Of a DNA stretch of 37,448 bases, positions 18,909 to 27,816 are shown one piece after another. The position numbers and the translations under genes are program-made. The stretch lies in NCBI GenBank assembly GCA_046757025.1, contig JBHHXN010000033.1, positions 1 through 37,448 on the forward strand, read 5' to 3'. Below the pieces are notes generated by a model. That model ran no database searches. It worked only from the letters and a program-made list of their open reading frames with translations, and had not been told where the DNA came from. Each line of letters begins with the position of its first letter. Position 1 is the stretch's first letter. This stretch comes from a bacterium. Its GTDB lineage: Bacteria > Zhuqueibacterota > Zhuqueibacteria > Oceanimicrobiales > Oceanimicrobiaceae.

Positions 18909-19937
18909 ATGTGGAAGAAGTTTTACCCGCTGCTTTTTTCAATTTCGGTTTCCGCTGTGGTCGTTTCTCCAACATTTAGTCAAACAGCCTATTCAGGGGG
19001 AAGAGGTTTGTTGAGAGTTCTGTCAGCAGAGAGCGTTCCATCCGCGGCCATTTTTGTCAACACCTTTTATTTTGGGTATTTCCGCAATCAGGATGCCGCT
19101 GGCCTGGGGAATGATCAATCTCTAAATCTGGGGCTGACTTACGGCTTGACGAATGATTTAGAAATCACCGCTTTGTTCAAACCGCACCAGGATGATCAGC
19201 AATATAATTGGTTTTCTCCGGGGGACACCGAGATCGGCATCAAATGGCAGCTGCCCTTTTCGGGTTCGGATTTCATCAGCGGCGTCAAAGGATTTTTGAG
19301 TCTGCCCACTGCCAGAACGCACAATCCGCCTTTTGAACCGTATTCTTCCCCGCAAATTGCCTGGGGGGTAGTTGGCCTGCTGACTCTGGATTTGACGCAC
19401 AAGCTGCCCAGGCTTCCGCTTAAAATTTACACCAACGTGGGTTATTTGGACCATGACATCACCTCCGTTTTCGCTGAACGATCCACCGATCAACTGCTTT
19501 TAGGATTGGGATTTAAAATACCGGTTTATCCATTCATTTTGTACACCGAGTACACCGGAGAGATTTTTTACAATCATGATCAGGTGGGCTTTCGGGACAA
19601 TTCCATGCGTCTCACCCAGGGCTTTAAATTTGTGGGTTTGTTCAACACGGTGGTGGATATTGGATTTGAGGTTGACCTGAGTCGGAATCGGGCTGTCTAT
19701 CCCGCTGCCATCGTTCATGATTATGCCGACTGGAAATTGTTCGGGGGGGTGACGTATCGGTTTAAACGGAAAAACTTTGACGCAGGCAGGCCGGGCGTGG
19801 TTAAAATAGACCGCAAAAAGGAAGAAAAGATTTTAGAGCAAATAAGAGCCCGACGTGAAAAAGCCAATGAAGATTTGGAAAAAGTGCGCGAACAGTTAGA
19901 GAAAAAACCACCTCCCAAAAAGAAAAAACAAAATTGA
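18909..19937 (+). CDS. Outer-membrane beta-barrel protein with a C-terminal coiled-coil/Lys-rich tail
   Basis: Signal peptide (MWKKFYPLL...TFS-Q), amphipathic strands ending GVTYRF, then ~55 charged residues ending KPPPKKKKQN. ORF open from 18900. Confidence 0.7.
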   Translation: MWKKFYPLLFSISVSAVVVSPTFSQTAYSGGRGLLRVLSAESVPSAAIFVNTFYFGYFRNQDAAGLGNDQSLNLGLTYGLTNDLEITALFKPHQDDQQYNWFSPGDTEIGIKWQLPFSGSDFISGVKGFLSLPTARTHNPPFEPYSSPQIAWGVVGLLTLDLTHKLPRLPLKIYTNVGYLDHDITSVFAERSTDQLLLGLGFKIPVYPFILYTEYTGEIFYNHDQVGFRDNSMRLTQGFKFVGLFNTVVDIGFEVDLSRNRAVYPAAIVHDYADWKLFGGVTYRFKRKNFDAGRPGVVKIDRKKEEKILEQIRARREKANEDLEKVREQLEKKPPPKKKKQN

Positions 19938-19990
19938 ATATTGATGGGGTTCCGCGCAGCAAGCAACTGAAAAAATAAAATAGAAAATAA

Positions 19991-21393
19991 ATGATCGATA
20001 AAAGAAAACAACCAAAACTCATACGCGCATGGTGCCTGCTTTTAGCTTTCCTGGTGATGACGAATTGGTCTGTGCCGGGTTTGGGCAAAGCCGCCTGCGC
20101 CAGCGCCGGTACGGAGCTTGCTTTTTACCAGGACCGCTCACACAAAGAAATCGAGAAGGCCGCAAAAAATCAATTGAAGATCGCCACCAAAAAGTTTGAA
20201 CAGGGCGAGTACTGGCAAAGCGCCATCGATCTCATTGTGATTTTGGATTTTTATGCCAATTTTACACAGATGGATGAAGTGATTTATCGGCTGGGAAGCT
20301 GTCTCTATGAAATGGAGTTGTACGATGGCGCGGATATGATGTATCGTTACCTGTTGAAAACCATTCCAAAAACACCTTTGCTGCCGCAGGTTCTGATGGG
20401 CTTACAAAAGGTCTATTATCACAAAGTCGATTATCAGCAGAGTTTAAAGTTTTACAAAACCCTGGAAGCGCATTTCCCGGCGGATAAAATCATGAATGAA
20501 TCGCGTTATTACGCAGCTCAGTCTTATTACCAGTTAAAGAATTACAGGCTAGTTCCGAACATCGTTCAAAGCATTAATAAAGACAGTGAATTTTATGCGT
20601 TTGGTTTATACACCACCGGCCTGGTGCAATTAAAAAAAAAAATGTTCGTGAATCCGTCGATAGTTTCATTGAGGTCACCAAACAGTCAATCAAAAGCGAA
20701 GAACATCGGGATTTAGTCAACTCGGCGCGCTTAACCCTGGGATACATTTTTTATGAGCTTTCCAGCTACGAAGCGGCTATCGGTTATTTAATCGACATTT
20801 CAACTGACTTTTACGATTATCCAGAGGCTTTGTTGGCCATGGGATGGGCTTCCTATAAATTACAAAAGTACCATGCCGCTATCGATTATTTGAACGAAAT
20901 TATTATAAAATATCCGGATTTTTACAACAAGGTAGAAGCTCAATTTGTCCTGGGGCAATGTTATATGAAACTAGGTTATTACGATTTTGCGATTAGAGAA
21001 TTTAATGAAATCATCGACGTATTGCCCGAATCTGAAAATTTTTCTACTGTCATCGATAAGATGAGATTGCAAATATTCGAGCATGAAAACAAAATTGAGG
21101 GGCTGAAAACCGAACTGCTGCTTTTAGAGACCAAACTTTTGGATACCATTTCCCGAAACATTGGCAACGGCATACCGCCTTTTGCCATGCGCGAGCGGGA
21201 TAAGCTGCGTAAAGAACATGAAAGCCTCATCAGAAAGATTGTGACTGAAAGCAACGTCATATTCGAAGCTGCAAGGCAAATTGGCCAGATAAAACTGAAA
21301 ATTGATGAAACCGAGATGCAAAAAAATTGGCGATCTTATGCCGAATACGGTAAAGTGAGAGCGCTCTACCTGAAAGGGGTCGAGGCAAAATAG
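19991..21393 (+). CDS. Exported TPR/coiled-coil protein (GltC-like), frameshifted at an A11 run; joins ORFs 19991..20716 and 20830..21393
   Basis: A11 at 20632-20642. The -1 frame continues with no stop (NVRESVDSF...RDLVNSARLTLGYIFYE...YPEALLAMGWASY) into the 20830 ORF. One extra A gives a 467-aa TPR protein. Confidence 0.8.
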
Positions 21394-21401
21394 CGTGAAA
21401 A

Positions 21402-25904: not shown

Positions 25905-25918
25905 CATTTTGAGAGAAC

Positions 25919-26452
25919 ATGTACTTTAATTTTGAAAAAGAATCCCCTGCTGATAAGCCGTTTTTAGTCATTCCCAGAAAACGCCGGACTTACCACGGCA
26001 TTACTTTGCGGCTGACCTCCATGATCGACATGTTTACGATCCTGCTGGTATTTTTACTGCAAAGTTTTTCAGCGGAAGGGGAAATCGTGAGTGTTTCGAA
26101 AGATTTGAAACTGCCTGTTTCCACTGCTAAAACACCGCCGAAGTCTACACCGATTTTAGTGGTGACTAACGAGTGGATCATATTAGACGGGGCTCCGGTT
26201 GAAAAGATAGCCAACGCGCTGGCTCAGAAGTCAATCATCATCAACAATTTGAAACGGCGGTTGATGAAGATTCGCGTTTTCTCGGAAAAATTAGGCGCCC
26301 TGGATTCGAAAATGGGATTTAAAGGCAATATTACCATCCAGGGAGATAGAGAGATTCCTTTTCTACTGTTGAAAAAAATCATGTTTACTTGCGGGCAGGT
26401 GGGCTTTAACAATATGTTGTTGGCGGTACATCAGGAAGATCAGCAAATATGA
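25919..26452 (+). CDS. exbD: ExbD/TolR family protein (AglS-like)
   Basis: LTSMIDMFTILLVFLLQSFSAEG transmembrane segment with Asp37; ITIQGDREIPFLLLKKIMFTCGQVGF. Confidence 0.88.
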   Translation: MYFNFEKESPADKPFLVIPRKRRTYHGITLRLTSMIDMFTILLVFLLQSFSAEGEIVSVSKDLKLPVSTAKTPPKSTPILVVTNEWIILDGAPVEKIANALAQKSIIINNLKRRLMKIRVFSEKLGALDSKMGFKGNITIQGDREIPFLLLKKIMFTCGQVGFNNMLLAVHQEDQQI

Positions 26453-26490
26453 TCATCCGATTCAAAAGGAAAATAGTATAATCTGTTTAA

Positions 26491-27816
26491 ATGGCAAAAT
26501 CGGTTAGACAACTTTATTTAAAGATCGAACAGGCCGGCAAAGTCTTTTATCACCGCTTGTCTGACGGTGATCGTTTTACCATCGGCCAGCATCCCAAAAA
26601 CGACGTCACCGTTTACGGAGAGCACTTTCCCAAGCAGCACACGCTGTTTTTGAGAAAGGGTAAGCACTATCTGCTGCGATTTAAAAAATACATGAGCGGC
26701 GAGGTGGTAGCAAAAAAATCGAAGTTGACTTTGCATGATTTGATCGATCACAATTTGCTTACCATGAAAGGCGATGATTTTTACTATCCGCTCTCTTATG
26801 ATAAAAGCGGTTTTGTCGTCATCGACGATGTAAAGATTTCCTTTAAGTTTGTAAGCAACGGTCAGCGAGAAACCGCCATTCCGGAGTTTCGAAATTTTCG
26901 CGGTTATTCCTGGTTATATGCCACGTTTAGAGATCTGGGGCGGGATCTGCCTTTCAAAGCGATTTTGATCGCCATGATTTTGGTACACGGCTTTTTATTG
27001 AATTACATGAACAAAATTCCGATCACCCTGAATTCACAGGTTCGGGAGAAAGCCGTGCCAGAACGATTTGCTAAAATCATCATGCGAAATACCGCCGCAA
27101 CAGCAAAAAAGCGCGTAGTCGCTCCGGGCGCAGCCGAATCAGAAGAAAGTGCATCGGAGGCGGATAAACCCGGCCAGCCCGAAAAAGGCCGGGAGGCTGC
27201 GAAGCCCGAATCGCAGGGTGTGCTCGGTTTGTTGACGGGCACGGGCAGCAGCAATCAAACTAGCAACCTGGCTGACTTGTTATTAGATAAAGGCCTGGTG
27301 CGGGAATTAGACGAAGTGATGAGCACGTCCCAGCTTCAGAAGGGAAGCGGAAGTAAAAATAACGATGAGGCTTTTGACGAATTGATCTCCCGTAGCGAGT
27401 TGGGCGGCGACATCGATGAGATTCTCGACGGGGTGGACGACGTTGAGTCGGTGCAATTGGGTGAGAAGGGGCGCATCGAAGTCGATCAGGTGGGCAGCAT
27501 TCAAGGCAGCGAGGCTGCGCTCGGCAAGCGCTCCGAAGAATCGGTGCGTACGGTTATGCTGGCCTACACCGGCCGCATGACCTATATTTACAATAAGTAT
27601 TTGAAACAAAATCCCGACATGAGCGGCAAGTTGGTGGTGGAAGTGGTGATTGCGGCCAACGGCAAAGTCGAAAGTACAAAAATTATCACCTCAACCATGA
27701 ATAATTCGGATTTTGACCGCGAGATTCTGAATTTGATCCGGCGCTGGAAATACCCTGCCATTGACAACGGTACGGTCACGGTGACCTATCCTTTGTTTTT
27801 CAACAAAATTGGTTAA
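26491..27816 (+). CDS. GltG/PglI (AgmX)-like TonB-family energy transducer
   Basis: N-terminal FHA-like beta domain (FTIGQHPKNDVTV), a single TM helix, a PERFAK motif, an acidic/Gly linker and a TonB-C-like end (YNKYLKQNPDMSGKLVVEVVIAANGKV...IRRWKYP...VTVTYPLFF). Confidence 0.82.
   Translation: MAKSVRQLYLKIEQAGKVFYHRLSDGDRFTIGQHPKNDVTVYGEHFPKQHTLFLRKGKHYLLRFKKYMSGEVVAKKSKLTLHDLIDHNLLTMKGDDFYYPLSYDKSGFVVIDDVKISFKFVSNGQRETAIPEFRNFRGYSWLYATFRDLGRDLPFKAILIAMILVHGFLLNYMNKIPITLNSQVREKAVPERFAKIIMRNTAATAKKRVVAPGAAESEESASEADKPGQPEKGREAAKPESQGVLGLLTGTGSSNQTSNLADLLLDKGLVRELDEVMSTSQLQKGSGSKNNDEAFDELISRSELGGDIDEILDGVDDVESVQLGEKGRIEVDQVGSIQGSEAALGKRSEESVRTVMLAYTGRMTYIYNKYLKQNPDMSGKLVVEVVIAANGKVESTKIITSTMNNSDFDREILNLIRRWKYPAIDNGTVTVTYPLFFNKIG

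Follow-up and report, generated by a model that had tools for sequence, protein, structure and literature searches.

A probable KSB1 (Zhuqueibacterota) form of the Agl-Glt core complex with a leading barrel gene, an ExbD subunit with asparagine at the channel position, and a conserved frame break in gltC

The Agl-Glt core complex (Luciano 2011) was described as a cluster of gltC, gltD, gltE, gltG, aglR, aglQ and aglS with one extra gene, its function being unknown (PMC3169522). The locus tags of that source give the order gltC-gltD-gltE-extra-aglR-aglQ-aglS-gltG, and Fibrobacter succinogenes is entered without gltE in its Table S3. The ancestral role of the core has been open since 2011. In Myxococcus xanthus, AglQ and AglS are both described with a channel aspartate (PMC9389320), and the substitution D28N in AglQ abolishes proton conductance, gliding and sporulation (PMC3858216). 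GltC docks under outer-membrane barrels in Myxococcus, according to pull-down (PMC9946355), and in the predicted architecture a small strand-plus-helix protein bridges GltC and GltG (PMC11761067).

The operon described here lies at positions 18909-27816 of a 37,448-nt window (the whole stretch of DNA that was analysed, to which positions refer) from a bacterial genome, G000, that is 94.8% complete; C and L numbers denote contigs and loci. We are highly confident that it is the KSB1/Zhuqueibacterota form of the core complex. The best explanation of the whole, to which a probability of about two in three is given, is a KSB1 Agl-Glt core complex with an added barrel gene and a one-aspartate motor, in which gltC would be read with slippage at a run of 10-11 A. 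Its notable features are the conserved frame break in gltC and the one-aspartate motor; the operon itself is a variant of the published core complex. The open reading frame (ORF) listing of the window gives eight co-directional genes on the + strand, in the order 12-stranded barrel, gltC, gltD, small gene, aglR, aglQ, aglS, gltG, with the following parts (aa, amino acids; TPR, tetratricopeptide repeat; TM, transmembrane).

18909..19937, + strand, outer-membrane beta-barrel; 12 predicted strands, FapF/COG4313/TraB-like fold, conserved N-terminal segment and C-terminal helix
19991..20716, + strand, gltC-like gene, zero frame; signal-like N-terminus and N-terminal TPRs, 241 aa without a slip
20632..20642, + strand, A11 run (TTA AAA AAA AAA A), one base short for the full-length frame; candidate programmed transcriptional slippage site
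20644..21393, + strand, gltC-like gene, -1 frame; remaining TPRs and coiled-coil hairpin, whole product about 467 aa with one added A
21402..24278, + strand, gltD-like TPR scaffold of 958 aa; signal-like N-terminus, homology to Fibrobacter GltD
24280..24669, + strand, small exported protein in the place of the core complex's extra gene; start uncertain (ATG at 24280, 24301 or 24328)
24821..25444, + strand, AglR-type MotA/TolQ/ExbB proton-channel subunit, by Pfam, Fibrobacter matches and tree
25446..25904, + strand, ExbD/TolR subunit in the aglQ position; Asn in place of the channel Asp
25919..26452, + strand, AglS-type ExbD/TolR subunit; channel Asp present, homology to Fibrobacter AglS
26491..27816, + strand, GltG-type transducer; degenerate FHA-like domain, one TM helix, long periplasmic linker, AgmX/PglI-type TonB_C domain

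The initial annotation of this DNA had reported eight co-directional, closely spaced genes, as is confirmed here. Its inventory stands for the barrel, the 958-aa TPR protein, the small exported protein, ExbB, the two ExbDs and the TonB_C protein; its TPR/coiled-coil gene is not one ORF but two frames joined at the A11 run. It noticed neither the conserved frameshift in gltC nor the asparagine in the AglQ-position ExbD.

Kinship with the core complex was examined through the clusters of two Fibrobacter metagenome-assembled genomes (MAGs), which match Fisuc_1892-1897 (protein lengths of 745, 1280, 206, 164 and 310 aa, against 746, 1292, 212, 164 and 308 aa as published). KSB1 profiles match this cluster gene by gene and in the same order: GltC with E 1e-45, the two GltD with E 6e-96 and 8e-94, AglR with E 2e-41, the two AglS with E 2e-40 and 9e-40, and the two GltG with E 1e-39 and 1e-37. 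The match at the AglQ position is weaker (E 4e-9), and the first ExbD is called AglQ by gene order together with this weak match. In the reverse search, all six Fibrobacter core proteins find the operon and its paralogue on contig C7 as their two best matches in G000. The profile alignment of GltC to Fibrobacter has a probability of 99.8 over 328 nearly gap-free columns that span the frame break. In a quick tree of 28 ExbB-family rows, drawn without myxobacterial rows, 14 core rows including two Fibrobacter AglR share one branch (support of 98 in the Shimodaira-Hasegawa-like approximate likelihood ratio test, SH-aLRT), apart from TolQ, ExbB and MotA. The operon has these traits of the core complex: one gene cluster with one extra gene ahead of aglR, two different ExbD/TolR-like subunits, GltC and GltD TPR proteins, and a GltG with a TM helix and an AgmX/PglI-type TonB_C domain. 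The kinship with Agl-Glt proposed in the initial annotation is upheld, and none of the refuting conditions set there came true: the ExbB phylogeny, the similarity of the TPR and TonB_C proteins to Fibrobacter GltC, GltD and GltG, and the conserved gene order all agree with it. Among the parts it had named, GltC, GltD and GltG are recognised by homology and GltF by position only; the small protein carries a conserved strand-plus-helix motif, and calling it GltF-like is a positional guess.

Pfam recognises ExbB (PF01618), the two ExbDs (PF02472), TonB_C and TPR families among the products, and no family for genes 1 and 4. Among the NCBIfam models, NF033768 matches the GltG-type protein with 84 bits (cut-off 40) and NF033760 with 95 bits, under its cut-off of 650. 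The GltC model NF033756 matches 17/17 intact homologues, far under its cut-off and outscored by generic TPR models. For the protein that the initial annotation had read as FHA-TM-TonB_C, the TM helix and TonB_C hold; the FHA domain has no Pfam match, and the N-terminal domain gives a weak match (E 5e-6) to profile positions 218-326 of GltG, which corresponds to the membrane-proximal FHA-like domain of M. xanthus GltG and not to its N-terminal FHA. GltE was not found in the cluster, and its best match in G000 scores 46.5 bits against a cut-off of 225; this does not exclude membership of the core complex, because the published Fibrobacter member is likewise listed without GltE. GltJ over cut-off was not found in G000 either, NF033761 being matched only by the C-terminal domain common to two GltG proteins (37 and 30 bits, cut-off 450). 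The earlier description as a variant with its own outer-membrane barrel and no GltE gene is thus correct. Its presentation as a self-contained cluster outside the myxobacteria was overstated: such a cluster is already known as the published core complex, of which the F. succinogenes member is entered without GltE (PMC3169522).

Other searches reached less far. PDB sequence searches found only TolQ/ExbB and weak TonB matches. The fold search with GltC returned generic TPR solenoids, a plasmid tblastn with GltD gave no match, and a contig scan with GltG yielded only two Fibrobacter loci, each with a short TonB_C protein. Homologue searches with ExbB and the paralogous ExbD found only close relatives among the matches listed, with no myxobacterial sequence.

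The host was placed in the FCB group by the initial annotation, and this fits the close homologues, which carry KSB1/Zhuqueibacterota names at source (a few stand under other depositor labels). KSB1 is an uncultured bacterial phylum. A GltG-like protein was matched in 41/41 relatives' genomes including G000. Across the phylum the GltG model gives matches in 145/149 genomes (two unpublished genomes subtracted), none over cut-off and some of them FHA-only or paralogues. A survey of synteny, suggested with the initial annotation, shows the gene order kept in 38/38 relatives' loci as far as contigs reach, barrel aside, which is far beyond chance, and in 9/9 loci of a second class. The sequence of G101 and G148 supports no claim made here.

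The gltC gene runs in two frames, 19991-20716 and 20644-21393; the zero frame stops at 20716, the remainder lies in the -1 frame, and the junction is the A11 run. The same A11, with no indel or bubble, is present in contigs of 4/4 public runs (one study, shallow; two of the runs may be the source). Frames were scored in 128 genomes: 119 of the 120 class genomes with the gene (unpublished genomes left out; G123, at a contig end, unscored) and nine of the second class. G057 is not among the scored genomes, and the state of G013 rests on separate scorings. The gene is split in 39/128 genomes belonging to two classes, always one base short, at the same codon and at an unbroken run of A10-11; a run of A10-12 stands in frame in 10/128, and 79/128 are in frame with a run of 8 or fewer A. 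No scored genome is one base long. Eight of the nine second-class genomes are split. Among metagenome contigs, which partly overlap the genomes, 62/64 were scored (L228 and L252 were not): 23 are split in the same way, 6 have the long run in frame and 33 a short run.

Both sides of the break are under purifying selection. The downstream frame is open for 246-252 codons in 29/29 split genomes analysed, and the ratio of nonsynonymous to synonymous substitution rates (dN/dS) of this half is 0.018-0.182 in 26/27 same-genus split pairs (one is saturated), like that of intact genes; G008 and G013 are outside the dN/dS analysis and the analyses of state sharing and state change below. A pseudogene was rejected on these grounds. 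Two separate genes were rejected as well: the downstream half has no conserved start (the first ATG falls at codon 5 to 222) and no signal-like segment, and the homology crosses the break free of gaps. The zero-frame tail past the break is 1-31 codons long and is not conserved. Modelling of an intact homologue places the site in the turn that joins TPR helices 186-199 and 203-214, so the short product would end at a clean boundary.

The run is kept against the habit of the genome. Lys-Lys-Lys is written AAA AAA AAA in 49/56 cases at the gltC junction vs 42/476 genome-wide in G000, where AAA makes up 76% of Lys codons. A/T runs of 10 or more number 17 in the 6 Mb of G000, and apart from the gltC run none of its ORFs of at least 150 aa contains an A11. 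There are three coding A10 runs in G000: two lie near gene ends, and one is the frame break of an IS630 transposase read in two frames (G000:C318 626-635, L168). Just one further run of 10 or more turned up in 38 loci of 7-20 kb. In many bacteria, selection against runs is evident at about nine nucleotides (PMC1088944). Same-genus pairs share the split or in-frame state in 31/32 cases (38 long-run genomes, permutation p 0.003). Quick trees built on the downstream half show 8 changes, with the long run occupying one large clade of the class, G151 and all 6 rows of the second class; this pattern fits a single old origin followed by losses as well as it fits several gains.

Taken together, these genome comparisons make biological recoding of the break very likely, and such recoding would probably be due to RNA polymerase slippage rather than to the ribosome. 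Programmed transcriptional slippage is favoured because no stem-loop, no clear internal Shine-Dalgarno (SD) sequence and no A_AAA_AAG was seen. Among the split genomes, 0/39 have A_AAA_AAG and 0/39 have fewer than 10 A; the downstream folding z score averages +0.25, which is shuffle level (70 nt downstream only), and an SD-like duplex below -5 kcal/mol occurs in 4/30 split genes. Where the tenth A has to be supplied by the preceding codon, that codon ends in A in 19/19 cases (12 of them from one family), vs an average A-ending share of 12% among the Leu codons of those genes; the outcome would be the same for slippage and for an artefact that affects long runs only. Described precedents are tssM1 of C. 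rodentium, with an 11-A tract, 20-25% slippage and both forms needed, and tssM3 of Y. pseudotuberculosis, with an in-frame tract and a short form made by slippage (PMC4256274). Other programmed slippage is cited for Thermus dnaX and for Shigella mxiE, spa13 and spa33 (PMC4256274, PMC1088944). A frameshift in KSB1 gltC was not found in the literature searched, with most subscription journals outside its reach, so a printed mention is possible; PMC11683472 has no passage on motility, gliding or secretion, and the main text of PMC3711429 has no TPR passage.

The motor is the second departure. The AglQ-position ExbD has Asn at the channel Asp position in 38/38 and 34/34 copies, and AglS has Asp in 38/38 and 32/32 copies (in each case two partly overlapping sets). 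The same Asn/Asp pair occurs in the paralogous cluster on contig C7; in Fibrobacter the two residues are Gly and Asp. The six other ExbD/TolR proteins of G000 that were inspected all carry Asp. From these residues, either a one-site AglQ/AglS heterodimer may work, or AglS homodimers may do the work while AglQ regulates. The natural Asp-to-Asn subunit copies the substitution that kills the Myxococcus motor, and it thereby offers a direct test of whether a 5:2 motor needs two protonatable sites and of whether AglQ and AglS form a heterodimer.

The barrel gene has no Pfam or NCBIfam family. An AlphaFold2 model from 22 sequences (mean predicted local distance difference test score, pLDDT, 81.7) has 12 strands and a C-terminal helix. 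Its best solved match is FapF (5o65; Z 20.9, root-mean-square deviation 3.1, 228 aligned), followed by the COG4313 channel (4rl8; Z 19.7), and fold matches in the Atlas are PF13557-type and TraB-like barrels. A close orthologue (E<1e-60) occurs in 123/165 genomes of the phylum (two unpublished genomes left out), and the gene itself is seen in 22/38 relatives' loci. The well-assembled genomes G011 and G036 keep the other genes, and no close barrel orthologue was found in them, so the gene is usual and not obligatory. A barrel paralogue (G000:C11 21878-23131, E 2e-35) lies outside both core clusters of G000, and paralogues of this kind, at least one per genome, are present in most members of the phylum.

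The architecture predicted for Myxococcus (PMC11761067) suggests a mechanism. Five AglR subunits surrounding AglQ and AglS would use proton flow to move GltG, whose membrane-proximal FHA-like domain would rest on AglR; the N-terminal domain of KSB1 GltG is placed there because it matches that part of the GltG model. The linker and TonB_C domain of GltG would grip GltD, and GltD, GltC and the small protein would bridge to the barrel. Most transcripts would carry the 11 A's unchanged and yield an exported fragment of about 240 aa, and a minority with one added A would yield the 467-aa connector, slippage setting the ratio of short and long GltC or rationing the connector. In genomes with the run in frame this ratio would be inverted. 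By analogy, the machine may perform energised work in the envelope other than gliding, acting on the barrel to gate it or to move surface material, a proposal about evenly poised in our judgement. Envelope work is favoured over gliding by the near-universal retention of the machine, by the channel type of its barrel and by scores of GltE and GltJ that stay below cut-off.

A number of observations weigh against this reading. The Glt equivalog scores are all below cut-off (GltC below generic TPR models), and the link to Agl-Glt runs through two Fibrobacter MAGs and NCBIfam models rather than through sequences of Myxococcus, Geobacter or gammaproteobacteria. Slippage is inferred from genomes alone, and the proposed function is drawn solely by analogy. 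Inside the long-run clade, the tree shows split genes alternating with in-frame ones, with 9 changes of which at least 7 are forced, and replication slippage would give the same. The 79/128 genomes that are intact with a short run include whole families, so the short GltC form is not universally needed. Seven genomes with Lys-Lys-Lys interrupt the run by AAG, the split genomes are not all independent of one another (12/39 are one family), and split genes have a slightly stronger anti-SD duplex upstream (mean -3.0 vs -1.4 in short-run genes). Some well-assembled genomes, the two named above among them, have no barrel next to gltC and no close orthologue.

The alternative that survives best, unlikely as we consider it, is a true gliding motor, i.e., a minimal Agl-Glt in KSB1 with the barrel replacing GltA/B/H. 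It would be in keeping with an MglB-like roadblock gene followed by an Arf-like (MglA-like) GTPase gene on G000:C20 (L166 5477-6615), with two core clusters in one genome, with a type IX secretion system (T9SS) translocon (SprA, contig C139) that could display adhesins, and with the failure to find flagellin in G000 (control positive in 4/14). Against these stand the scores of GltE and GltJ, neither over cut-off (CglB, GltK and GltI were not among the search models), a GltG without the N-terminal FHA, and the judgement in PMC3169522 that motility by the core alone is unlikely. The motility suggested in the initial annotation is thus unsupported; of the genes it proposed to look for, MglB/MglA-like genes and SprA are present, and GldL, GldM and GldN were not found in G000, where no positive control responded, so that their absence is not established. 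ExbB/ExbD-type clusters beside PorV-like and PorP/SprF-like genes on G000:C21 (L162) and G000:C15 (L163) are candidates for an alternative energiser of type IX secretion. A MotA/MotB pair stands beside a TPR gene and a Pal-like gene on G000:C25 (L161).

As to the break itself, repair by -1 ribosomal frameshifting on A_AAA_AAA, leaving the same machine, is decidedly unlikely. The register needed is indeed -1 in 39/39, A_AAA_AAA is a known shifty heptamer (PMC3711429), and the slightly stronger upstream anti-SD pairing of split genes leaves this route open; no split genome has A_AAA_AAG or fewer than 10 A, however, the preceding codon ends in A in all 19 cases (12 of one family) against the mean of 12% for Leu codons, and no structure is seen in the 70 nt downstream. 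Phase variation, in which the run would slip in replication and switch gltC on (in frame) or off (one short), is more improbable still. Long A runs are hypermutable (PMC1088944), gltC is an envelope gene, and both states occur among close kin (G009/G019, G000/G012, G001/G006). Against this, 39/49 long-run genomes would be "off" and none is one base long; the state is stable within genera over saturated synonymous distances (31/32 pairs); the "off" downstream half is as constrained as intact genes; and no length variant appears in the contigs of the 4 runs, which are shallow, contigs dropping rare variants. A sequencing or assembly artefact, with a true run one A longer and an intact gene, is very improbable: all genomes are draft assemblies, the loss is always of one base in a long homopolymer and the four runs checked are one study, but 10 genomes assemble A10-12 in frame at the site and cluster by genus, an intact gene of G000 contains a T10 run without loss of frame, separate metagenome contigs show the split again, and even if the artefact were real, the strong retention of an otherwise avoided run would still need explaining. 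An ordinary TonB-ExbBD or Tol-Pal operon with incidental TPR neighbours is scarcely credible and already largely refuted by the Fibrobacter matches in both directions and the ExbB tree. The best NCBIfam match of the operon ExbB is indeed TolQ, and summed repeats lift the 958-aa protein over the cut-offs of YbgF and BamD, but no TonB-dependent receptor, TolB or Pal lies within the cluster (as first annotated), G000 has its own Tol-Pal (contig C97), TonB-ExbBD and MotAB loci elsewhere, the ExbB tree sets the core clade apart from TolQ/ExbB, and the C-terminal domain of the GltG-type protein is over its cut-off.

Around the operon, 581 bases are free upstream and a convergent gene begins 346 bases downstream. 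A promoter and terminator scan stayed at chance level (19 vs 16.4 and 14 vs 12.1), and the gltC-gltD spacing does not differ visibly between split and whole gltC genes. The convergent gene (window 28163-31150, - strand) encodes a 995-aa protein with a TolB-like PD40 propeller and PA, M28 peptidase and PDZ domains. About 4 kb upstream of the operon, a TamA-like Omp85 gene is followed by a TamB gene (window 9295-15027), and at window 4865-7048 (- strand) a 727-aa protein consists nearly entirely of ankyrin repeats.

The paralogous core cluster of G000 (C7 17596-28230; L061, L165) comprises gltC-like (923 aa), gltD-like (1501 aa), small, aglR, aglQ (with Asn), aglS and gltG genes. It directly follows an F1F0 ATP synthase operon and precedes aspS. 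A barrel gene and a long A run are both absent from it, and its gltG lacks the FHA-like domain. Six metagenome loci (L219, L221, L236, L237, L238, L232) have barrel-gltC-gltD-small followed by a gltG-like gene, with aglR-aglQ-aglS not adjacent or rearranged; by analogy with Myxococcus, where the motor genes stand apart, they may be transducer-only versions. Several relatives (L043, L046, L047, L052 and L062) have a canonical ExbB gene, either downstream of gltG at a distance of <=3 kb or beside a second GltG-type protein.

For a cellular structural gene, retention of a frame break at one codon reaches unusually deep in gltC, and because of this poly-A break annotation splits the gene in many genomes. 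With motor, shaft and own barrel in 9 kb, the system is compact enough to be reassembled in a laboratory host and studied as a whole. A bolder reading, in our view rather doubtful, is that an ancient recoding signal at one codon, older than the split of the two KSB1 classes, makes a stand-alone proto-gliding machine in two builds. In one, long GltC would link a plugged 12-stranded channel to an asymmetric 5:1:1 motor with one aspartate; in the other, short GltC would cap or uncouple the machine. Ton and Tol would thereby be joined by a third kind of energised outer-membrane machine, one tuned by polymerase slippage.

Compared with known systems, the operon shares with the Fibrobacter core cluster the order gltC-gltD-(small)-aglR-aglQ-aglS-gltG, the homology of six proteins, the lack of GltE and an unknown function, and with the core complex of Luciano 2011 the form of a single cluster in a non-myxobacterium. 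It differs from Fibrobacter in its leading 12-stranded barrel gene, in a GltG with an FHA-like domain (absent there) and in the AglQ-position channel residue, Asn in KSB1 and Gly in Fibrobacter; its GltC is shorter (about 460 aa vs 550-746 in the core complex) and is split at a poly-A run in many genomes. C. rodentium tssM1 resembles KSB1 gltC in its 11-A tract of three AAA codons in a trans-envelope structural gene, one added A restoring the full length, and relatives of tssM have an in-frame tract, so both arrangements are mirrored; the tssM sites are rare among homologues, whereas the gltC site stands at one codon in genomes of two classes and is known from genomes alone. FapF (5o65) and the COG4313 channel (4rl8) have the 12-stranded fold in common with the operon barrel, which differs from them by its 11-14% identity and its C-terminal helix, and a common fold is no proof of function. 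With the Agl-Glt and Agl-Nfs systems of M. xanthus the operon shares an AglRQS-type motor with two different ExbD-like subunits, a GltG-type transducer, GltC/GltD-type TPR scaffolds (PMC11761067, PMC9946355, PMC3858216) and an outer-membrane barrel as likely end point. The small protein has a conserved strand-plus-helix motif like the Myxococcus bridging protein and is likened to GltF by position only. One barrel of FapF/COG4313 fold replaces GltA/B/H of M. xanthus, and GltE and GltJ are not over cut-off. M. xanthus has Asp on both AglQ and AglS and a motor paralysed by D28N in AglQ; the AglQ position of KSB1 is naturally Asn.

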